Shown here: positions 1 through 9,505 of the stretch, in pieces
Position numbering within the stretch: position 1 is the first letter of the stretch
Layout of the letters: every line of letters starts with the position of its first letter
Origin: Bacillota bacterium
Lineage (GTDB): Bacteria; Bacillota; Clostridia; Acetivibrionales; DTU013
DNA length: 64,000 nucleotides
Assembly (NCBI GenBank): GCA_023412665.1
Contig: JAEZCA010000068.1
Span: 3,651 to 67,650 of the forward strand
Direction: 5' to 3'
Made by a program: the position numbers and the translations under genes
The notes under the pieces: generated by a model
Database searches by the model: none
The model's input: the letters and a program-made list of their open reading frames with translations, nothing else
What the model was told of the DNA's origin: nothing

Positions 1-161
1 AATTGTTTGGCGATACGCTCCCGAAAAAAAGACTCATAACAGCAGAAATCCGTCTACTTATTATCCTCAAAAACAACTGATATACTTGTTTAACAGGGAA
101 GGATAATTTGACGCCTACAACACTGCAAATTAAATTATGAAAATTGGGGGATATAATTGAC

Positions 162-1121
162 ATGAATGTAAAGAAGAAAATATGCACATTGTTGATTGCC
201 GCTGTCTGTATGACGGCAATATCGGGCTGTGGAAACGGACAGAAAGAGACACCTGTTTCAGACGCTGAATCGGTGCCGGCAGAACAAATTTCATCTGCAG
301 CAGAGACTGCCGGATCAGACGCAACAACAGTGACACCGGATAGTTTACCGACAAATGAAACTGATAAGGGTGCGGCTCCCGATGGGAAAATCGAAACATC
401 TGCGTCCGAGGATCCAAAGGATGAACTGCAATGGGATACGGAAACACTGAAAAATGAGACGGGAAAGACTTTGATAAGGTGTATAGGCAATCAAAGAGGA
501 GGCGACGGACATGTCAGCTTTGGAATAGTTTCCGCAAGGGGGACTACAATACTGGCGGATCCTATTTATTCGACCAAAGACAGAGGATATATAAAGACTG
601 ATATCATTACTGTATCGCATACTCACAGTGATCATTACAATCAAAAGCTGCAAACTAAAATGAAGGATTATGCGAGGCTTTCCTATTTTACTCCCGAGAG
701 CTTCACCGTGGAAGACGTGAATGTTATAGGAGTTACTGCATCACATTCATCGGATCCGATCAATGAATCGCGGCCGAGCAACGTGATATATGTCTATGAA
801 CTTGATGGTATCAGGATAGCCCACATGGGGGATATGGGACAGGATGAGCTTACTGCGGAGCAGCTTGAGAAGCTGGGACAGCTGGATATCATTTTCACTG
901 TAATCACCAACGCACCAAATTTCGGTTCATCAACAGAGAAGAACATAAAAATCATACAGCAGTTGAATCCAAGAATCGTAGTCCCAACACACTACTCGCA
1001 GGATGTGATTGCAGAAACGATAAAGGCTCTGGAGGTCAAAGAGTGTGAGAGTGCTACCGAACTGGTAATCAGCAAGGATGAGCTGAAGGATATGACAATG
1101 AGGTTCATCATTGTAGAATAA
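162..1121 (+). CDS. MBL-fold metallo-hydrolase, predicted lipoprotein
   Basis: ORF 144..1121. Preferred ATG at 162 with a GGGGGA Shine-Dalgarno about 9 nt upstream. N-terminus MNVKKKICTLLIAAVCMTAISGC is a signal peptide plus lipobox. HTHSDH matches the HxHxDH zinc motif. Confidence 0.8.
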   Translation: MNVKKKICTLLIAAVCMTAISGCGNGQKETPVSDAESVPAEQISSAAETAGSDATTVTPDSLPTNETDKGAAPDGKIETSASEDPKDELQWDTETLKNETGKTLIRCIGNQRGGDGHVSFGIVSARGTTILADPIYSTKDRGYIKTDIITVSHTHSDHYNQKLQTKMKDYARLSYFTPESFTVEDVNVIGVTASHSSDPINESRPSNVIYVYELDGIRIAHMGDMGQDELTAEQLEKLGQLDIIFTVITNAPNFGSSTEKNIKIIQQLNPRIVVPTHYSQDVIAETIKALEVKECESATELVISKDELKDMTMRFIIVE

Positions 1122-1126
1122 AAAGT

Positions 1127-1155
1127 GGGACGTCTTATGCAATATCAGACGTCCC
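1127..1155 (+). terminator. Stem-loop after the MBL hydrolase gene (weak T tract)
   Basis: GGGACGTCT (1127-1135) pairs with AGACGTCCC (1147-1155). No clear U-run follows. Confidence 0.35.
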
Positions 1156-1180
1156 TGCCCTTCATCGGGATATAAATCAA

Positions 1181-1189
1181 TTATCCACA
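1181..1189 (+). promoter_or_regulatory. Single perfect DnaA-box 9-mer TTATCCACA
   Basis: Exact consensus 9-mer about 90 nt upstream of the MBOAT start. An isolated box could be chance. Confidence 0.3.
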
Positions 1190-1278
1190 GCCCCAGTTGA
1201 TGAAAAACGCATTATATGTTAGAATTACAGCGTTCTGAGTATTTTGACCGGCACTTGAAGGGAAGCAAAAAAGCATAT

Positions 1279-2700
1279 ATGATTTTTTCATCATACACAT
1301 TCATTTTTATATTTTTACCGATAGTATTTACAGTCTACTATCTTGCCCAGAGATTTTTGGGGGACAAGCCGGCAAAGCTGTGGCTGGTTGGAGCGTCGCT
1401 GTATTTTTATGCTCATGGGAGCCTTGTTTTCTTACCGATCCTGGCAGGTACCGTTCTATTCAACTTTATCATCGTCAAGCTGATGAGAAGGTACAGCAGC
1501 AGGCCGGTGCTCCGAAAGCTGCTGATGTTGCTGGCAGCCCTGGAGAATCTCGGATTGCTGTTTTATTTCAAGTACATGAATTTCTTCCTTCAGAATGTCA
1601 ATTACATAACCGGCAGAGATCAGGTCCTGCTTAAAATAATACTGCCTATAGGCATTTCCTTTTATACCTTTCAGATATTGTCCCATGTTATTGACACCTA
1701 CAGAGGGGAGGGCGAGGACAGCACCTTTCTGGAGTTTTCACTGTTTGTGACATTCTTTCCCCAGCTTATCGTGGGGCCGATAATCCGGCATGATGATATG
1801 CTGGAGCAGATACGCTCCGAAAAAATCCGACGCCTTGATGCCGGCAATATTATGAAGGGTATAACACTTTTCTCAATAGGCTGTGCAAAAAAGATACTGA
1901 TAGCGGACACACTGATATCTCACGCGCAAAACTTTTATAATGTAATGGGAAACGGCAATTTCTTTGAGGCCTGGGGGGCGGTTCTGGCCTATACCTTCGC
2001 CTATTATTTTGATTTCTCGGGATATGTGGATATGGCCCTGGGACTTGGCCTGTTTTTCAATATCAGGCTGCCGGAGAATTTCAATTCACCATATAAGGCG
2101 CGTAATTTTGCTGATTTCTGGAGAAGGTGGAACATCAGTGTTTCGACCTTTTTCAATGATTATGTTTTCAGAAGGATATTCAAATTTGGAAACGGTATAC
2201 CAAAGCTGATACTGGCCACACTCGTGACATTTATTGTATCCGGCCTGTGGCATGGTGCCAGCTGGCATTATGTATTCTGGGGACTGGCAAATGGGATACT
2301 GGTCTGCTTCGCCAATATTATGACTCTGAAGCGGAAGAAGCTGCCGTTTTTTCCGGCGTGGGCTCTTACATTTTTCTTTGTGCTGCTGACCAGGGTGCTT
2401 TTTGATGCAAACGGTATGACCCAGGCAATAAATGTTTACAGGACAATGCTTGATATAAGGCCAGCGATAACGGGTTTTGCCGCCTTCCTTGGGATGGGTC
2501 TGACTTATGTGAAGGACAATTGGCTTGTGACCGCCCTTGTAATAATCGGCGCGTGCATCAGCTTTTTTGCGCCTAACAGCCGGGAGATGCTGGAGGACAG
2601 GGAGCCAAGATGGTATCATGCTGCTTTCAGTGGGGTGTTGATAACTCTGTCGCTGTTTTTTATGGGAGGTGTGTCAAACTTCCTGTACTTTCAGTTCTGA
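1279..2700 (+). CDS. MBOAT-family membrane O-acyltransferase (AlgI/DltB/PatA-like)
   Basis: ORF 1216..2700. Likely ATG at 1279 (MIFSSYTF...). Polytopic hydrophobic protein. LWHGASWHYVFWG contains the conserved MBOAT His motif. Size is AlgI-like, about 470 aa. Confidence 0.85.
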   Translation: MIFSSYTFIFIFLPIVFTVYYLAQRFLGDKPAKLWLVGASLYFYAHGSLVFLPILAGTVLFNFIIVKLMRRYSSRPVLRKLLMLLAALENLGLLFYFKYMNFFLQNVNYITGRDQVLLKIILPIGISFYTFQILSHVIDTYRGEGEDSTFLEFSLFVTFFPQLIVGPIIRHDDMLEQIRSEKIRRLDAGNIMKGITLFSIGCAKKILIADTLISHAQNFYNVMGNGNFFEAWGAVLAYTFAYYFDFSGYVDMALGLGLFFNIRLPENFNSPYKARNFADFWRRWNISVSTFFNDYVFRRIFKFGNGIPKLILATLVTFIVSGLWHGASWHYVFWGLANGILVCFANIMTLKRKKLPFFPAWALTFFFVLLTRVLFDANGMTQAINVYRTMLDIRPAITGFAAFLGMGLTYVKDNWLVTALVIIGACISFFAPNSREMLEDREPRWYHAAFSGVLITLSLFFMGGVSNFLYFQF

Positions 2701-2792
2701 CGGCTGGAAAACAGGATGTTGAGAGCTCAGACAGGCTGATACAGTCGGAATGAGCAGAATCGGAAAATATTTGCGGAGAGGGTCCAGGGACA

Positions 2793-4730
2793 GTGGAGAA
2801 GAAGCAGGCTATAAGTTTTAAAAAATGGATCGCAGTTTTTATAGTAACAGTTGTTGTTATAGGTGCTTTGATATGTGGACTCAATGCGCTTGTCGACCCC
2901 TTTGGCATTTTCGGGGATGTTGCTTTTAACTGGTATGCATATGATATGACACAGAATCCCAGAGCCGCTAAGATAGCATATCTCGATAAGAACTACGAAA
3001 AGTATGACTCGTACATCATAGGTTGTTCAAAGACAGGATCATATTCGACCGAAGCGCTGAACAAGTATTACGGCGGTGCCAGCTTCTACAATATGCTTAT
3101 GTATGGCGGGGACATGTACGATATCGAGCTGACCGCCAAATATATACTGGAAAACTATAATGTAAAAAACATAGTGATAAATATGGGGCTTGAGGAAACG
3201 GTAAGGTATGACACACAGGCTGATGAAATGAAGAGCAACCTCCATGCAAAGGTTGACGGTTCGTGGCAGCCGGCATACTATGGAAAATATCTTTTTGCAA
3301 ACCCATCCTATGCATTTTCCAAAATAGCGGCCTGGTACATGGACGGTTACCTTGTGAATGAAAATGATGTATTTCTACCCGAATCAGGGGCCTATGACAA
3401 GTCTGTCAGAGATGTGGAGCATGTGGGCAGTCTTAACGATTTTCTGACAGAGTATCCGAGCTTTAAAACCGTTCTGAAAAAAGAAAAACTTGACGCAAAG
3501 GACAAGTGCCTTGATTCTGTCCGGCGGATAAAGGAGATGTGTGATGAAAAAGGTGTCTCCTTCAGGATGATAATATCACCGATATTCCACACCGAAATGG
3601 ATATTTATGATAAAGTCCAGCTGGAGGAGTTCTTGACGGGGCTTTCACAGATAACTGATTACTGGGACTTTTCAGGATATACTTCTGTAAGCTTTGAGCC
3701 AAGGTACTTTTATGATACCTACCACTTCAGGAATGCGGTAGGGAATATGGTGCTGGCCAAAGTATTTGGTGATGAAAGCATATATTTTCCTGCGGATATC
3801 GGTCGGCATGTAACTGCGGATAATATCTCAGAGCATATATCTTCTTACTTTGGAAGCGCTGCTGCCGACGAAAACGGGGGAGGCGGCGTGAACAGCGACA
3901 GCGGAAGCAATAGTACCGACAATGTGAAAAACAGTGCTTCTCAAACGGCGGCATACAGTTGCAATGTTCCGGTCCTTATGTATCACCACTTGGACAGTGC
4001 AGCGACAAATGATGCCATTATGACTCCTGAGAGGTTCGAGGAACACATGGCTGCTCTCTCGGATGCCGGTTACTCAGCGATTTCCCTAACTCAGCTTCTC
4101 GATTATGTGGACAAAGGCCTGGAAATGCCGGAAAACCCTGTGCTGATCACTTTTGACGACGGCTATGCAAGCAATTATGAATTGGCATATCCGATTCTGG
4201 AGAAGTATAATATGAAGGCAGTGATAAATGTTATAGGAGTCACAACTGGAAAGGATAGCTACAAGGATACGGGCGCCGCTATAATACCGCATTTCACATA
4301 TGAGGAGGCCCGGGAGATGGCTGAAAGCGGTGTCATTGAGATACAGAGCCACAGCTTTGATATGCATAACACCGAGGCACTCGATGAAGATTACAGGCAG
4401 GGTGTGTATAAAAAAGCCGGAGAGACCGATGAAGAATATATAGAAGCCTTCTGCAGCGATTTTAAGAGATCGGAAAAGGAAATATTAGATAATACAGGCA
4501 ACAGGGTCATATCATACGCATATCCCAATGGCTTTTATACAACTTTGAGCGAGGTTCTTCTCAGCAGGATGGGTGTCAGGATAACGATGACTGTGGAGGA
4601 AGGCATGAACACGGTTATCAAAGGTTTGCCCCAAAGTCTGAGGGCAATGAAGCGCTACCGGGTGCATGAAGGCATCTCCGGCGAAAAGCTCGTAGAGCGT
4701 TTGAAGAAGGACAGCCAAAATGCAGGATAG
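2793..4730 (+). CDS. Membrane-anchored DltD-like (SGNH-type) domain fused to a CE4/NodB polysaccharide deacetylase domain
   Basis: GTG start. N-terminal TM helix WIAVFIVTVVVIGALICGLNALV. IIGCSKTGS aligns with DltD GSSE, and FYDTYHFRN aligns with DltD DTIH (DxxH). A Gly/Ser linker (GGGGVNSDSGSNS) follows. The CE4 half has VPVLMYHH, ITFDDGY, QSHSFDMH and YAYPNG motifs. Confidence 0.75.
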   Translation: MEKKQAISFKKWIAVFIVTVVVIGALICGLNALVDPFGIFGDVAFNWYAYDMTQNPRAAKIAYLDKNYEKYDSYIIGCSKTGSYSTEALNKYYGGASFYNMLMYGGDMYDIELTAKYILENYNVKNIVINMGLEETVRYDTQADEMKSNLHAKVDGSWQPAYYGKYLFANPSYAFSKIAAWYMDGYLVNENDVFLPESGAYDKSVRDVEHVGSLNDFLTEYPSFKTVLKKEKLDAKDKCLDSVRRIKEMCDEKGVSFRMIISPIFHTEMDIYDKVQLEEFLTGLSQITDYWDFSGYTSVSFEPRYFYDTYHFRNAVGNMVLAKVFGDESIYFPADIGRHVTADNISEHISSYFGSAAADENGGGGVNSDSGSNSTDNVKNSASQTAAYSCNVPVLMYHHLDSAATNDAIMTPERFEEHMAALSDAGYSAISLTQLLDYVDKGLEMPENPVLITFDDGYASNYELAYPILEKYNMKAVINVIGVTTGKDSYKDTGAAIIPHFTYEEAREMAESGVIEIQSHSFDMHNTEALDEDYRQGVYKKAGETDEEYIEAFCSDFKRSEKEILDNTGNRVISYAYPNGFYTTLSEVLLSRMGVRITMTVEEGMNTVIKGLPQSLRAMKRYRVHEGISGEKLVERLKKDSQNAG

Positions 4731-4854
4731 TTGATAGGGCCGGGTATGGGAGTAATACAGATATAGCAGGATAGCCGGAATAAGGTATGATACAGAGGTG
4801 TATCGTAAAAAGCAGGACAGTATGCTCGAAGTGTAGAGAGAAGGGATGATATCT

Positions 4855-5091
4855 ATGGATACAAGAGAAAGAATAATGGAGTTCTTTAAAGGCCGCAGCA
4901 GGGCTGATGACCTGAAATATGATACGGACCTGTTCAAGGGAGGCTTTATCAATTCGCTGTTTGCACTTGAAATGGTGGTATTTCTTGAAGATACCTTCAA
5001 AATAAAGATAAAGAACAAGGAAATAAACGAAAAAAACTTCAGGACTGTTGACAGTATTGCGGAAGTTGTGGAAAGAGCGAAACAAAAATAG
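4855..5091 (+). CDS. Stand-alone acyl/peptidyl carrier protein (DltC/ACP-like)
   Basis: ORF 4846..5091. ATG 4855 is better spaced from the GAGAGAAGGG Shine-Dalgarno. About 80 aa and acidic. GGFINSLFALEMVVFLED places a Ser at the DSL phosphopantetheine site followed by helix II. Confidence 0.75.
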   Translation: MDTRERIMEFFKGRSRADDLKYDTDLFKGGFINSLFALEMVVFLEDTFKIKIKNKEINEKNFRTVDSIAEVVERAKQK

Positions 5092-5109
5092 CAATCGAGG
5101 GAGATACCA

Positions 5110-6150
5110 ATGTCAAAGAAAATAAAATGCCTGGTTTGGGATCTGGACAACACGCTATGGAACGGCATACTTCTGGAGGATGGCAATGTCTCGCTCAAGG
5201 AAGGCATTATTGACATACTCCAAGAGCTGGACAGACGTGGTATATTGCTTTCGATTTCCAGCAAAAATGACCATGATGATACTATGAAAAAGCTGCGAGA
5301 GCTTGGAATAGAGGAGTATTTCATTTACCCTCAGATCGGCTGGAGCAACAAGGCTGACGCAATAAAGGAAATAGCTTCTGCCCTCAATATCAGTCTTGAT
5401 ACTTTTGCATTTATTGATGACCAGCCTTCAGAGCGCGAAGAAGTAGCATTTATGCTGCCTCAGGTTATGACCCTTGATGCAGCGGACTATAAGAGCCTTC
5501 CGGATATGGAAAGGCTAACGCCCAAATTTGTCACAGAGGATTCCAGGATGCGCAGAAAGATGTACCAGGCCGACCTTGAGCGCAAAAACGTGGAGAAAGA
5601 CTTCAAGGGCTCCAGTGAGGAGTTTCTTGCATCTCTTGGGATGGAGCTTACCGTGGCTCCTGTGGCAAAGGGAGATCTGGAGCGGGTCGAGGAGCTGACC
5701 ATACGCACAAATCAGCTGAATTCCACCGGCGTGACATACAGCTTTGAGGAACTGGAAGGGTTTATTTCATCGCCATCCCATGTTTTCCTTATTGCCGAGC
5801 TTAATGACAAATTCGGTTCATACGGCAAGATTGGGCTCGTCCTGCTGGAGGAGGCGGGAGACGAGCTGTGGATAAGGCTGTTGCTCATGTCCTGTAGAGT
5901 GATGACCAGAGGGATAGGTTCTGCTTTGCTTGTGCATATAGTTAAGCTTGCTGAAAGCAGAGGAAAAAGACTTGTTGCTGATTTTGTCGATACGGGCAGG
6001 AACAGGGTCATGTATATCACATATAAGCTGATGGGCTTTGAGGAAGCTGAGACTGACGACAGCTCTGAACAGGACAATCGCAGCGTGCTTGAGTACAGGG
6101 GCGGCAGCGACAGGGAATATCCGCCATATCTTAAGCTCATACTTAATTAA
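5110..6150 (+). CDS. HAD-IIIC / FkbH-like enzyme with GNAT-like C-terminal half
   Basis: GAGGGAG Shine-Dalgarno; starts 18 nt after the ACP stop. VWDLDNTLW is HAD motif I (DxDxT). SISSKN and FIDDQ are HAD motifs II and IV. C-terminal LLLMSCRVMTRGIG resembles the FkbH-family Cys (SCR) region, recalled from memory. Confidence 0.7.
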   Translation: MSKKIKCLVWDLDNTLWNGILLEDGNVSLKEGIIDILQELDRRGILLSISSKNDHDDTMKKLRELGIEEYFIYPQIGWSNKADAIKEIASALNISLDTFAFIDDQPSEREEVAFMLPQVMTLDAADYKSLPDMERLTPKFVTEDSRMRRKMYQADLERKNVEKDFKGSSEEFLASLGMELTVAPVAKGDLERVEELTIRTNQLNSTGVTYSFEELEGFISSPSHVFLIAELNDKFGSYGKIGLVLLEEAGDELWIRLLLMSCRVMTRGIGSALLVHIVKLAESRGKRLVADFVDTGRNRVMYITYKLMGFEEAETDDSSEQDNRSVLEYRGGSDREYPPYLKLILN

Positions 6151-6307
6151 GAGTATTTTGCTTTCCCAGAGGAGGCGGGATTATCCGGACCTTCTTAATT
6201 ATCCGGAAAGTTTCCGACAGGCCAGACAGTTGAATGGTTGATTGGGATGGGGATCGGGAGTCTGGAGCAACCCTTGCTACCTGGAAGATAAGTGTGAAGC
6301 ATAATAA

Positions 6308-6326
6308 TTTATCGAAAAACGATAAA
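6308..6326. promoter_or_regulatory. Perfect 7-bp inverted repeat TTTATCG-N5-CGATAAA just upstream of a promoter
   Basis: Read directly from the sequence. Lies 7 nt upstream of the putative -35 for the DUF2975/HTH genes. Candidate operator. Confidence 0.35.
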
Positions 6327-6332
6327 AATATA

Positions 6333-6361
6333 TTGATAAATAATAAAAACCATTGTATACT
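6333..6361 (+). promoter_or_regulatory. Sigma-A-like promoter (TTGATA-N17-TATACT)
   Basis: TTGATA at 6333-6338, 17-nt spacer, TATACT at 6356-6361. About 30 nt upstream of the 6394 start. Confidence 0.4.
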
Positions 6362-6393
6362 ATCCTTATGAATGAAAAGGGTGGTATTTTTTT

Positions 6394-6855
6394 ATGAAAA
6401 TACTTGATCGCAAGGGCCTCTCAGGGATTATACAGCGATTTGTGGAGTTGATACTGATTGGCGGTATATTGATAATACTTGGACTGCCGTTTGTGCTGAA
6501 ATGGTACATGAGCTTGCTTAACGGCAATACGACTGAGCTGTATGCTTTCCTGCTTCCGTTTCTTTATATCACAGGGATTTCAGCTGCCATGATAGTCTAT
6601 GAGCTTCGAAAAATATTCATAACGCTAAACCGCATGGATCCTTTTAGAATGGACAATGTAAAAAGCTTCAGGATAATGGCGATATGCTGTTTTATCGTAG
6701 CAGCTGCTTATATAGTCAAAATTTTTACTTTCAACTCGTTTCTTACAATTATTCTTTTCATGGTATTTGTAATTGGCGGATTCATGCTGCTTATTGTGTC
6801 TGAGGTATTCAGACAGGCGGTTATTGTAAAAGAAGAGAATGACTTAACGATATAG
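6394..6855 (+). CDS. DUF2975-like four-TM membrane protein
   Basis: Small polytopic protein directly upstream of a YozG-type HTH gene. This pairing is typical for DUF2975. Confidence 0.6.
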   Translation: MKILDRKGLSGIIQRFVELILIGGILIILGLPFVLKWYMSLLNGNTTELYAFLLPFLYITGISAAMIVYELRKIFITLNRMDPFRMDNVKSFRIMAICCFIVAAAYIVKIFTFNSFLTIILFMVFVIGGFMLLIVSEVFRQAVIVKEENDLTI

Positions 6856-6930
6856 CCAAGGCAGAAAGAGCAGCTTTGCCGTAATGACAGCCGCGGTTGA
6901 TTTGCAGGAAAGGGAGTAACAGGTGGATAA

Positions 6931-7143
6931 ATGGGTATCAGAATAAATCTGGATGTTATGATGGCCAAGCGCAAGATCGGTTTGACAGAGCTTGCCTCAA
7001 AGGTAGATTTAACGTTGGCCAATTTGTCAATATTGAAAAATAACAAGGCCAGAGCTGTCAGGTTTTCTACACTTGAAGGCCTGTGCAAGGCATTGGATTG
7101 TCAGCCGGGAGATATACTCGAGTATGAGCCGGAGGACAATTGA
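6931..7143 (+). CDS. XRE-family HTH transcriptional regulator (YozG-like)
   Basis: 70 aa. LDVMMAKRKIGLTELASKVDLTLANLSILKNNKARAVRFSTLEGLCKALDCQPGDIL is the characteristic short Cro/C1-type HTH. Confidence 0.85.
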   Translation: MGIRINLDVMMAKRKIGLTELASKVDLTLANLSILKNNKARAVRFSTLEGLCKALDCQPGDILEYEPEDN

Positions 7144-7176
7144 GACAGATATTCATGATTGCAAGGAGGGCTGGAA

Positions 7177-8766
7177 ATGAATGAAGATAATAAGAATCCA
7201 AATGATATCGAACAGCCGGGCAGGCCTATATACGGCCAACCGCAAGGGCTGATGCACAATCAGCACCAATTACCTGTCAAGCAACCATTGGTGTATAGTT
7301 CCGCAGACAAACTGCTGCTTGCAGGGGCACTCCTGTTCGGCATAATATTTGTAGGGCTCTTTTTTGACAACTATCCTGGCATTTCCGTTCCATTAATCAT
7401 AATTGTTTTTTATTCTCTGCTATTTACCTACACTAAGTCTGTACTGAAGAAGGATACCTGGTTCGGATGGTTTCTGTGTCTTCCGGTTTTTTTGCTTTCG
7501 TTGACATTCTTCCTCTTTGGAAACGAAGTGCTGATGATCCTCAATATTCTTGTGCTTCCGATGCTTATATTGCTGCAGACTATACTTGTGACAGGAGTGA
7601 ACAGCTACAAGTGGTTCAGCCCCGGAATAATACCGGATCTGTTTTTAAGTATGTTTGCCAGGTGCCTGATCCATATTCCCAAGCCATTCGGGATAATTTC
7701 ATCGATAGCCCGGACAAGGACAGGAAGCGGTGGTAAAAAGTCAGTCGGATCCAGAGTGCTTATTGGACTTATTATATCTGTACCTGTTCTGCTGGTGCTT
7801 CTCTTGCTTTTGTCATCGGCAGATATGGTTTTTGGGAAAATAGTTGAAAAGCTTCCCGACTTTCTTGAGAGTATTAATTTCAGCGAGCTTTTTTCCAGAA
7901 CTATTGTTGCATTATTTATATTTTTCATTTCCTTCAGCTATATATGGAGCCTCGGCCATGGTGAAAGATTTTTGGAAAACCGCACCGGACTGGTTTCTTC
8001 AAAAACTCCCGAGGAAAAAAGACGCTGGGACCCGGTCATATTTATTACTGTTACAGCAGCGGTCGACATACTTTATTTATTCTTTGTAGTAATACAGTTT
8101 ACTTACCTGTTTGGAAGATACGGACTACCTGAGGGTTTTACATATTCGGAGTATGCAAGAAACGGGTTCTCCGAGCTTGTGCTTGTATCGCTGCTTAATA
8201 TGGGGATGCTGGCAATCACGCTGACCTATACAAAAATTATGAATGGTTTCGGCGACAGAATATTCAGGCTTTTAAACTCGATAATGATCTGCTGCACCTT
8301 TGTCATGTTGTGCTCAGCCTATTACAGGATGTCGCTTTATGAGGCAGCATATGGGTTTACTTTTCTTCGCATCATGACCCAAGCCTTCATGATCTTTCTA
8401 TTCGTTTTATTCGTCATTACCATGGTAAGGGTTTGGAATGACCGTGTTCCACTGCTCAAACCCTATATCGCTGCTGCAGTGATCGCTTTTACGATCATTA
8501 ACTATATCAATGTAGATGCGGTGATAGCGCAGAAAAACATTGAAAGGTATCGTAAGACGGGGATAATTGATGTTCACTATTTCAACAGCCTTTCCAGCTC
8601 TGCTATCGATGAACTCATAGAGCTCTCCAACGACAGCGACCCGGAGGTTGCATCGGAGGCGGAGAAGATACTGGAGTCTAAAAAAATGTGGTTGTTGAGT
8701 AAAACGAAATGGCAATCATTTAATCTGGCTGATCACTATGCCAGAAAGGAAATGTCCAAGCAATGA
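7177..8766 (+). CDS. Large polytopic membrane protein (DUF4153/DUF4173-like)
   Basis: ORF 7159..8766. ATG 7177 lies 7 nt after AGGAGGG. More than 10 hydrophobic segments and a soluble C-terminal tail. The family assignment is tentative. Confidence 0.55.
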   Translation: MNEDNKNPNDIEQPGRPIYGQPQGLMHNQHQLPVKQPLVYSSADKLLLAGALLFGIIFVGLFFDNYPGISVPLIIIVFYSLLFTYTKSVLKKDTWFGWFLCLPVFLLSLTFFLFGNEVLMILNILVLPMLILLQTILVTGVNSYKWFSPGIIPDLFLSMFARCLIHIPKPFGIISSIARTRTGSGGKKSVGSRVLIGLIISVPVLLVLLLLLSSADMVFGKIVEKLPDFLESINFSELFSRTIVALFIFFISFSYIWSLGHGERFLENRTGLVSSKTPEEKRRWDPVIFITVTAAVDILYLFFVVIQFTYLFGRYGLPEGFTYSEYARNGFSELVLVSLLNMGMLAITLTYTKIMNGFGDRIFRLLNSIMICCTFVMLCSAYYRMSLYEAAYGFTFLRIMTQAFMIFLFVLFVITMVRVWNDRVPLLKPYIAAAVIAFTIINYINVDAVIAQKNIERYRKTGIIDVHYFNSLSSSAIDELIELSNDSDPEVASEAEKILESKKMWLLSKTKWQSFNLADHYARKEMSKQ

Positions 8767-8802
8767 TGTTATCATCCGGTTTTCCGGACTATAGCATTGT
8801 AC

Positions 8803-9294
8803 TCAGCTTATACCTGAGATCTTATTGAGCAATGTGAACAGAACAACAGCGGTATTTGATATACTGGCAAGGAATATTTGCGGCTTGTGCTTGTTCCTGT
8901 CGAAAATACCGCTGTTTTTTCCTATTTTCTTCTGAATGAAATAAAGCTGAAGCAATATGGAAAGTGCTGTAACGCCCTTGAGCAGAATGCTTTCGAGATA
9001 AAATGCGCAGTAACATAAAAATAGTATAATTATTAGATTGCATACGACGCTCAAGCCGGCCCCGAACATTTTCAGGTCTATATCCACCAGCTCTTCCAGT
9101 TCCTCCTCCAGCTCCTCGTCGACTTCCTTTTCCTCAAAACCGTTCCCTTTAGCAATATTATATATATTGGCAAATGATATTACTGTCAGTATCGTTGCGA
9201 TCACACCGAAAAAAATCTGATGATTCGCTGAGATAGTAATAACAGGGAATGCAAGTATTACTAAAAAAATTAATGTGCTGCCTCTGGATTGCAT
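8803..9294 (-). CDS. Membrane protein with acidic loop (unknown function)
   Basis: GGGAGA Shine-Dalgarno 8 nt upstream. Four hydrophobic segments. Loop EEKEVDEELEEELEELVD. Confidence 0.5.
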   Translation of the reverse strand: MQSRGSTLIFLVILAFPVITISANHQIFFGVIATILTVISFANIYNIAKGNGFEEKEVDEELEEELEELVDIDLKMFGAGLSVVCNLIIILFLCYCAFYLESILLKGVTALSILLQLYFIQKKIGKNSGIFDRNKHKPQIFLASISNTAVVLFTLLNKISGIS

Positions 9295-9505
9295 TATTTT
9301 ATTCTCCCGGGTTCCGACTGATCGTATTTGCTCGGATTTTTTCTTTTCAGATTATTATACTATAAAAAATATTATTCAGCACATAAAGTTTATACACTTA
9401 AAGTTTATGTTGTCTTTATTCTGTTGCAGAATAATAATTCTGTAAAATTGTTATGCTAACTATGATGATTTTTATTATGAATAAGTGCCAAAAGGAGGAT
9501 ACCGA

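Follow-up and report, generated by a model that had tools for sequence, protein, structure and literature searches.

The 64,000-nucleotide stretch of DNA analysed here (hereafter the window), from contig JAEZCA010000068.1 of the Bacillota assembly GCA_023412665.1 (Acetivibrionales; DTU013), carries near its start four closely packed forward-strand open reading frames (ORFs), which occupy positions 1216–6150. They encode, in order, a membrane-bound O-acyltransferase (MBOAT), a fusion of an SGNH-fold acyltransferase domain with a CE4 polysaccharide deacetylase domain (SGNH-CE4), a small acyl carrier protein (ACP), and an FkbH-type loading enzyme (Table 1). Every ORF of at least 60 amino acids on either strand was listed across this region, and besides the four genes the listing holds only overlapping or antisense frames. 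The best reading of this layout is a single operon with the order MBOAT, SGNH-CE4, ACP, FkbH.

A hairpin at 1127–1155 terminates the preceding gene, which encodes an MBL-fold hydrolase, and is followed by a promoter-like site. The start of the longest MBOAT ORF (1216) falls inside this site, and another ATG, at 1279, lies downstream of it. The true start is probably ATG 1279, to judge from related sequences: it would give a protein of 473 amino acids, which is the length of most orthologues, and an alignment of 20 MBOAT orthologues (alignment A3) begins at MIFSSY. The carrier-protein gene starts at ATG 4855, 9 nt after a GAAGGG ribosome-binding site; an alternative in-frame ATG at 4846 abuts that site and is hence less likely. 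Between the carrier-protein stop codon (TAG, 5089–5091) and the FkbH ATG at 5110 lie 18 nt, which hold a GAGGGAG ribosome-binding site. An initial annotation of the window had reported this 18-nt gap, and both the ORF coordinates and the raw sequence confirm it. The same annotation called the two genes translationally linked; the close spacing stands, and the wording is a little strong for genes that do not overlap. In relatives, the two genes are 2 nt apart or overlap by 8 nt, and in the window they are surely co-transcribed. A terminator scan 3' of position 6150 returned no convincing candidate, and the 3' end of the operon is set only by a promoter-like site at 6333.

Table 1. Features of the four-gene cassette and its upstream flank (window coordinates; residue numbers where a domain is placed on its protein)
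Feature	Position	Strand	Evidence or remark
MBL-fold lipoprotein	144–1121		upstream of the cassette
Promoter-like site	1197–1225	+	TTGATG-17-TAGAAT with TG extension; consensus match only
MBOAT acyltransferase	1216–2700 (longest ORF, 494 aa)	+	PF03062, 118.9 bits
C-terminal hexapeptide FLYFQF of the MBOAT	2680–2697	+	fits the FXYXXF acyl-shuttle motif
SGNH-CE4 (gene 2, 645 aa)	2793–4730	+	N-terminal membrane helix, ~330-aa domain, linker, CE4
Transmembrane helix and SGNH-fold, DltD-like acyltransferase domain	2793–3866	+	AlphaFold2 (AF2) predicted local distance difference test (pLDDT) 88.8; Foldseek; VIA
Gly/Ser/Asn-rich linker between the two extracytoplasmic domains	3867–3950	+	pLDDT <50 from residue 359
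CE4 polysaccharide deacetylase domain, PgaB/IcaB type	3951–4730	+	PF01522, 69 bits
Carrier protein (78 aa)	4855–5091	+	attachment site Ser34 in FINSLFA (4945–4965)
FkbH-type bifunctional loader	5110–6150	+	TIGR01686, 275.3 bits (cut-off 146.65)
HAD-IIIC phosphatase domain of FkbH	residues 1–140		DLDNT at 5140–5154; K81; DD103–104
GNAT-fold domain of FkbH	residues 178–334		Cys262 in MSCRVMTRGIGS (5887–5922)

To place the operon among its relatives, we compared 44 genome loci that encode a close relative of the FkbH enzyme. The MBOAT, SGNH-CE4, ACP, and FkbH genes occur in the order of the window at 20 of them; at one more (L030) the MBOAT pair is divergent, and another (L007) is cut by the contig end before the MBOAT gene, which brings the cassette to 22 of the 44 loci. 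Polyketide synthase (PKS) or nonribosomal peptide synthetase (NRPS) genes accompany the FkbH gene at 15 loci, in the arrangement 3-hydroxyacyl-CoA dehydrogenase (3HCDH), ACP, acyl-CoA dehydrogenase (ACAD), FkbH. Four loci have the ACP–FkbH pair alone, and at the remaining three the genes are cut or distant. The initial annotation had described the ACP and FkbH genes as an orphan pair and had regarded FkbH enzymes as normally embedded in polyketide clusters. Neither description holds: in the window the pair ends a conserved four-gene cassette, and in this close subfamily an MBOAT context is found no less often than a PKS context.

The cassette proteins are as little as 41–54 per cent identical to those of the window, with FkbH itself at 51 per cent or more, and their hosts include Oscillospiraceae, Hungateiclostridiaceae, Clostridiaceae, Syntrophomonas, and one Chloroflexota metagenome-assembled genome. 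Three further metagenomic contigs have the same four genes in the same order between very different flanks. Because the flanks vary from locus to locus, the four genes themselves are the unit.

The loading enzyme is a full-length FkbH. The TIGR01686 match covers profile positions 3–321 of 323, and the HAD-IIIC model is matched with 72.5 bits (cut-off 35.75). Residues D11, D13, T15, S51, K81, and D103–D104 are invariant in alignment A2, and each is kept in 45 or 46 of 47 FkbH sequences, a set that spans both contexts and includes 15 homologues from the 3HCDH-ACP-ACAD-FkbH/PKS clusters. Cys262, in the motif MSCR, is present in 46 of the 47 sequences, with a gap in the remaining one, and is the only invariant cysteine of the C-terminal half. 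The alignment that had been proposed as a check on the MSCR cysteine and the DxDxT aspartates thus finds both conserved, PKS-context homologues included, in a set without OzmB or Tmn16.

The AF2 model of FkbH (pLDDT 90.5) agrees with this division into two domains. In VIA comparisons, the HAD domain superimposes on the Bacteroides HAD-IIIC structure 3slr (Z 19.1, root-mean-square deviation 1.8 over 139 residues), and residues 178–334 match RimI and other N-acetyltransferases with Z of ~15, so that the earlier description of the C-terminal half as GNAT-like, with a candidate catalytic cysteine, is borne out by the model. Cys262 is placed at the end of strand beta-4, immediately before RGIG. In GNATs, the loop at this position holds the pantetheine of CoA, and Cys262 would therefore be a sensible site for a thiol that swaps an acyl group with a phosphopantetheine arm. 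A phmmer search of the Protein Data Bank (PDB) matched the HAD part only (3slr, E-value 3e-13) and no solved FkbH-type C-terminal domain.

The enzyme is 50–56 per cent identical to homologues in PKS-type clusters. The homologue in Bacillus wiedmannii (56 per cent) has as neighbours ketosynthase modules, a 3-hydroxyacyl-CoA dehydrogenase, an ACP, an acyl-CoA dehydrogenase, an acyltransferase, an NRPS, and a phosphopantetheinyl transferase. In the characterised enzyme OzmB and its relatives, 1,3-bisphosphoglycerate is converted through phosphoglyceryl-S-enzyme and glyceryl-S-enzyme to glyceryl-ACP (PMC9057759, PMC7489565). By its invariance in a set of sequences other than OzmB, Cys262 probably corresponds to the experimentally mapped OzmB cysteine.

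The carrier protein matches the Pfam PP-binding model with 18.2 bits, just below the cut-off, and 15 NCBIfam carrier-protein models with E-values down to 9e-11, all under their cut-offs; the DltC model NF003464 reaches 36.3 bits (cut-off 68). Ser34 is invariant in 44 homologues, and the motif (N/D)SLFA is common to the carriers of the cassette and those of the PKS-type FkbH clusters. The shared motif and the invariant serine suggest that the carrier and its loader derive as a pair from glyceryl-ACP systems.

On the membrane side, His346 of the MBOAT (LWHGASWH, 2245–2268) is invariant among the 20 orthologues of alignment A3. All 22 cassette MBOATs end in an F-x-Y-x-x-F hexapeptide whose fixed positions never vary; the exact sequence FLYFQF is found in 19, and the other three differ at an x position. 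In the Dlt pathway, the FXYXXF acyl-shuttle motif resides on the microprotein DltX, and PatA and other MBOATs contain it within their own chain (PMC12148441). The tyrosine of the motif delivers the acyl group to the SGNH partner, a role that has been shown for DltX and PatA (PMC12148441). By analogy, Tyr491 of the window's MBOAT is the predicted acyl-tyrosine site. A predicted complex of the MBOAT (A3) with the carrier protein (A4) scored 0.11, under the threshold, which gives no verdict for or against binding.

The same genome encodes a second MBOAT on contig C42 (85357–88365). It has 467 amino acids, is 35 per cent identical to the cassette MBOAT, ends in FIYFRF, and adjoins a 532-residue membrane-anchored protein. 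No carrier gene was seen near it among ORFs of at least 120 amino acids, a filter that excludes carriers of ~80 amino acids, and C42 had no tblastn match to two carrier-protein queries. This MBOAT and its neighbour are presumably an ordinary acyl-CoA-fed pair.

The second protein of the cassette joins two domains that would both lie outside the cytoplasm. Its residues 1–385 have no Pfam or NCBIfam match, the Pfam DltD family included. A Foldseek search with the model of the SGNH domain returned DltD structures as all of its top 12 matches (6o93, 6pfx, 7dxm, and 3bma among them), with E-values from 5e-5 and TM-scores of 0.38–0.40 over ~390 aligned columns, and VIA aligned residues 50–327 to many SGNH hydrolases with Z of ~12. 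The predicted triad consists of Ser79 (IGCSKT, 3018–3035), Asp308, and His311 (FYDTYHFR, 3708–3731); G77, S79, K80, D308, and H311 are invariant in two sets of relatives (n = 42 and n = 118). Ser79 is thus the predicted SGNH nucleophile, with the Asp-x-x-His motif providing its Asp/His pair. The label DltD-like given to this protein in the initial annotation therefore holds for the modelled fold and for the invariant GCSK...DTYH motifs, and does not extend to the sequence profile; the likeness is one of fold and motif level only.

In the CE4 domain, the catalytic set is intact (His398 in MYHH, Asp455–Asp456 in TFDD, and His520/His525 in HSFDMH), and His398, Asp455–Asp456, and His520-x4-His525 are invariant in 118 relatives. 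The domain scores 134 bits against the PgaB equivalog model TIGR03938 (cut-off 321.9) and 55.6 bits against TIGR03933 (cut-off 248). Its nearest solved relatives are the poly-N-acetylglucosamine (PNAG) de-N-acetylases BpsB, PgaB, and IcaB, with 5bu6 (BpsB/PgaB) as the best match (E-value 1.3e-21). At one related locus (L051; G002:C17:59937-64766), the SGNH-CE4 homologue contains one in-frame TAA, possibly the sign of a broken gene or of an assembly error; the ACP–FkbH pair of that genome, on another contig, is intact.

The genomic surroundings of the cassette were searched for the partners that FkbH enzymes have elsewhere. The genome comprises 72 contigs (3.74 Mb), and the window lies on the 105-kb contig C17. 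Taken from a Bacillus PKS locus, the tblastn queries covered a ketosynthase module, an acyltransferase and an NRPS module, together with both dehydrogenases and a phosphopantetheinyl transferase. None of them matched contig C17; the earlier observation that no ketosynthase, acyltransferase, adenylation, or condensation gene lies nearby thus extends to the whole contig. Nor does the contig carry a PKS or the partners of methoxymalonyl and tetronate loaders (3-hydroxyacyl-CoA dehydrogenase, acyl-CoA dehydrogenase, O-methyltransferase, FabH-like enzyme). Elsewhere in the genome, apart from a phosphopantetheinyl transferase on C14 (see below), the only matches were scattered AMP-binding genes, one NRPS-like gene (C1), and a pair for fatty-acid synthesis (C19).

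The operon lacks an AMP-binding gene, and no DltA above cut-off is encoded in the genome, where the best TIGR01734 match (314 bits against a cut-off of 560) lies in the NRPS-like gene of 1445 amino acids on C1; a canonical Dlt system was not found elsewhere in the genome. An Sfp-type phosphopantetheinyl transferase is encoded on C14, and at the cassette locus of one relative (L049, 5498–6259) a gene for such an enzyme is divergent from the MBOAT gene, a possible hint to carrier activation. The genome of the window also holds, on one strand of C33 (97659–102674), an asparagine-synthase-like gene, an AMP-binding ligase gene, a gene for a protein of 347 amino acids, and a small carrier-protein match, a group that may be another carrier-based modification system.

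On the gene order, the domain identities, the intact catalytic residues, and the conserved linkage described above, together with the co-occurrence reported below, we infer a series of chemical steps, an acyl group, and an acceptor. The overall route, by which a glyceryl group drawn from glycolysis would reach the carrier protein, the MBOAT tyrosine, the SGNH serine, and finally an envelope polymer, seems to us probable by a modest measure. In the cytoplasm, FkbH would take 1,3-bisphosphoglycerate and form a phosphoglyceryl thioester on Cys262; its HAD domain would remove the 3-phosphate, and the carrier would receive the glyceryl group on the phosphopantetheine arm attached to Ser34. The loaded carrier would dock on the cytoplasmic face of the MBOAT, which, via His346, would carry the acyl group across the membrane to Tyr491 in its C-terminal FLYFQF motif. 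The membrane-anchored SGNH domain would then accept the acyl group on Ser79 and transfer it to an extracytoplasmic polymer.

Several points weigh against this route. In the published cases, MBOATs that have the FXYXXF motif fused to them draw on acyl-CoA and have no carrier protein (PMC12148441), and the cassette MBOAT might likewise use acetyl-CoA. Its match to the DltB model TIGR04091 (151.8 bits) is far below the cut-off of 375. A profile of the SGNH N-terminal domain found no DltD or SGNH match in the PDB, the best hit being an unrelated protein with an E-value of 0.019. That this clade of FkbH enzymes uses 1,3-bisphosphoglycerate is suggested by homology only. In some genomes, the ACP–FkbH pair is physically separate from the MBOAT pair. 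On the acceptor side, no glycosyltransferase cluster or acceptor-polymer genes are linked to the cassette in the three metagenomic contigs examined, and the genome of the window has no PgaC/IcaA above cut-off (the best candidate, a GT2, scores 168 bits against 422).

The genomes in which the two pairs are separate bear directly on whether the pairs belong together. In three genomes, the ACP–FkbH pair sits among housekeeping genes, and in all three (3/3) an MBOAT gene, encoding a protein 54–57 per cent identical to that of the window, is followed by an SGNH-CE4 gene on another contig. We also drew one even sample of 300 genomes of the class and searched it for FkbH (E-values up to 1e-60) and for the SGNH domain (E-values up to 1e-20). 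Each was found in eight genomes, and six genomes had both. The trait is thus patchy, being present in 8 of the 300 genomes and in 7 of 177 genera. The two FkbH-only genomes have homologues of 53–55 per cent identity, which are presumably of the PKS type.

In the two SGNH-only genomes (L061 and L062), no FkbH was found, and both have other loading genes close to the MBOAT and SGNH genes. At L061 (G201:C11:58000-74000), consecutive genes at 3378–9293 specify an AMP-binding ligase, a GNAT, a carrier-like protein of 74 amino acids (serine motif DSF), an MBOAT whose last residues are FIYKQF, and an SGNH-CE4 protein that is 44 per cent identical to that of the window; this operon resembles a version of the export system in which adenylation does the loading. 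At L062 (G011:C11:12000-26000, 1417–9463), one strand encodes a separate CE4 protein, an MBOAT (FLYFQF, 46 per cent identical), and an unfused SGNH protein, and the adjoining genes on the other strand encode an MBOAT of DltB size, a carrier-like protein of 80 amino acids, and an AMP-binding ligase. The small proteins of both loci have no Pfam match and are called carrier-like by their size, position, and serine motif; the 80-residue protein also matches a Bacillus ACP by tblastn (E-value 2.5e-8). The ligases and carrier-like proteins of L061 and L062 suggest that the acceptor-side proteins accompany carrier-type donors and that the loader is exchangeable. This co-occurrence with exchangeable carrier-type donors is the strongest argument that a carrier feeds the MBOAT.

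The main rival to this conclusion holds that two unrelated pairs travel together. In that case, the MBOAT and SGNH-CE4 proteins would O-acetylate a wall polymer from acetyl-CoA, as PatA and PatB do, and the ACP–FkbH pair would serve another product, such as a lipid or a small molecule whose biosynthetic enzymes are encoded at other sites. Such a division of labour would accord with the fused FXYXXF motif, a hallmark of MBOATs that use acyl-CoA, with the separation of the pairs in at least three genomes, and with the second MBOAT on C42, near which no carrier gene was seen. It leaves unexplained why a single gene order is kept at 20 loci from several families and another phylum when the flanks vary, and why both pairs are present in every one of the three genomes in which they are unlinked. 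Of the eight SGNH-positive genomes in the sample, six encode FkbH; in the remaining two, genes for a ligase and a carrier-like protein adjoin the MBOAT and SGNH genes or lie close to them. Furthermore, no other consumer of glyceryl-ACP (ketosynthase, FabH-like enzyme, or condensation domain) was found on the contig. The co-occurrence data weaken this rival, and we regard it as unlikely. Linkage at 22 loci and co-occurrence where linkage is lost also support the proposal in the initial annotation that the MBOAT and its SGNH partner are the machinery downstream of the carrier.

Given a carrier-fed route, the acyl group that it exports would be, in the simplest prediction, glyceryl (2,3-dihydroxypropanoyl). 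With neither a dehydrogenase nor a methyltransferase or dehydratase in the operon, the group would stay glyceryl. Oxidation of glyceryl-ACP to hydroxymalonyl-ACP takes two dehydrogenases, which are present at all 15 PKS-context loci and beside the cassette at none of the cassette loci; L013 alone has weak dehydrogenase matches (36–37 per cent identity), ~3 kb downstream of its cassette. Alternatively, the same export route could carry another acyl group, either because this FkbH clade loads a different acyl phosphate or because enzymes encoded elsewhere convert glyceryl, for example to lactyl or pyruvyl. The phylogeny leaves some room for such a change of substrate. In a quick maximum likelihood tree, 17 cassette FkbHs and that of L007 form one group (support of 99), three others (L018, L029, and L037) fall in a second group with stand-alone pairs, and both groups are apart from all PKS-context sequences. 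The active site argues against it: the HAD residues and Cys262 are kept, a pattern that would make sense only if the substrate is an acyl phosphate with a further phosphate group, such as 1,3-bisphosphoglycerate, and the degree of identity to the PKS-context enzymes is that given above. Moreover, no tailoring gene is found in the operon or at the cassette loci checked by dehydrogenase queries or gene listing. A different acyl group on the same route is in our view improbable.

A clue to the acceptor of the glyceryl group comes from the CE4 domain, whose intact catalytic set points to a polymer containing N-acetylglucosamine (GlcNAc). This fused PgaB-type domain would act on the same polymer as the SGNH domain, which could be peptidoglycan, a secondary wall polysaccharide, or a teichoic-acid-like polymer, and would either prepare the acceptor site or remove the mark. 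Because the cassette is self-contained and its neighbourhoods are variable, a strain-specific capsule is less likely than a widespread polymer, for example peptidoglycan or a polysaccharide linked to the wall. A PNAG-type polymer was considered and is not favoured, since the genome has no PgaC/IcaA above cut-off. At one cassette locus (L048, 6008–7579), a gene for a GH20 beta-N-acetylhexosaminidase follows the cassette, a possible hint to a GlcNAc-containing acceptor.

The fusion of the two domains allows a more specific scheme, which we put forward as a doubtful one: the CE4 domain would strip acetyl from GlcNAc or N-acetylmuramic acid, and the SGNH domain would add glyceryl to the freed amine or to an adjacent hydroxyl, so that acetyl would be swapped for glyceryl outside the cytoplasm. 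Were this true, the product would be an amino sugar with an N- or O-glyceroyl group, and a glycolytic intermediate would directly bear the cost of the swap.

The CE4 domain could also be an eraser that hydrolyses the glyceryl or acetyl ester from the polymer, like Ape1 beside PatA/PatB, which would place writer and eraser on one polypeptide. The CE4 family includes O-deacylating esterases besides N-deacetylases, the Gram-negative PatA/PatB cluster includes an esterase, and at L062 the CE4 domain is encoded by a separate gene adjoining the MBOAT gene; all three points are in keeping with an eraser. The nearest solved relatives, however, are the N-deacetylases BpsB, PgaB, and IcaB, and their full set of metal and acid–base residues is kept. 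We think an eraser very unlikely; it would in any case be a variant of the carrier-fed route rather than an alternative to it.

Comparison with characterised systems shows from which sides the proposed route draws its parts. As in the Dlt pathway, a small carrier would bring an acyl thioester to an MBOAT, and an FXYXXF tyrosine would shuttle the acyl group to the outside (PMC12148441), where a membrane-anchored SGNH protein of DltD-like fold would put it on a polymer. Unlike Dlt, the cassette has no adenylating DltA: its loader is FkbH, and its acyl group would derive from glycerate of glycolysis and not from D-alanine. In place of a DltX microprotein, the MBOAT itself bears the shuttle motif; neither this MBOAT nor the carrier comes near the DltB or DltC cut-off, and the SGNH domain shares its polypeptide with a CE4 deacetylase domain.

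With PatA/PatB, AlgI/AlgJ/AlgX, and WssH, the cassette shares extra C-terminal MBOAT helices that end in FXYXXF, are auto-acylated on the tyrosine in those systems, and have an SGNH transferase as the second partner. PatA/PatB and their like use acetyl-CoA without a carrier, whereas the cassette operon includes a dedicated carrier and loader. Non-Dlt MBOAT–SGNH pathways have no carrier protein because they use acyl-CoA (PMC12148441); the cassette, carrier-fed like Dlt and with a fused motif like PatA, would therefore be a hybrid.

The loader itself resembles enzymes of the FkbH/OzmB/GdmH/Tmn16 type in its HAD-IIIC and GNAT-like domains, its invariant cysteine, its type of carrier, and its level of identity. 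The cassette differs from methoxymalonyl and tetronate loading systems in that it has no dehydrogenases, O-methyltransferase, FabH-like enzyme, ketosynthase, or acyltransferase, and its product would go to a membrane acyltransferase and not to a synthase. The CE4 domain has the catalytic order and spacing of PgaB, BpsB, and IcaB (His, Asp-Asp, His-x4-His) and differs from them in its scores below the PgaB and IcaB cut-offs, in its position behind an SGNH domain, and in a genome without PgaC/IcaA above cut-off.

A search of the literature, which excluded most subscription journals, found no paper on an FkbH-fed MBOAT system. The two papers found that mention both FkbH and MBOAT are, by their titles and abstracts, studies of cyanobacterial aeruginosin and suomilide. 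To our knowledge, Dlt is the only route characterised so far in which a carrier protein feeds an MBOAT for the decoration of a bacterial envelope. If our proposal is true, the cassette would be a second carrier-fed MBOAT route, with FkbH in place of an adenylating ligase as the loader and with a neutral polyhydroxy C3 acid as the acyl group, compared with the cationic amino acid of Dlt. It would also give a cell-envelope role to FkbH, which in the literature searched is known only from polyketide, tetronate, and nonribosomal peptide chemistry. The apparent replacement of the loader by a ligase and a carrier-like protein in some genomes suggests a modular family of envelope acylation systems. 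In anaerobic Firmicutes from digesters and the gut, glyceroylated wall polymers could alter surface charge, hydration, sensitivity to autolysins and lysozyme, and phage adsorption.

The cassette is followed in the window (6394–8766) by genes for a DUF2975 membrane protein, a short Cro/C1-type helix-turn-helix (HTH) regulator, and a DUF4153 membrane protein. This trio also adjoins the cassette at L001 and L004; L008 has only the DUF4153 gene there, and the other loci have none of the three. The trio is present as well in a genome of the same genus without the cassette (G099), and its genes are neighbours that lie outside the cassette. In G099, the ferritin and DUF2975 genes are ~190 bp apart, and between the same two genes the genome of the window has ~9 kb extra (C17:1072-10028, that is, window positions 1–6378 and the preceding 2.6 kb). 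This additional DNA contains a gene for a surface protein of 764 amino acids with leucine-rich repeats and a solute-binding-like part, the gene of the MBL-fold lipoprotein, and the four-gene cassette.

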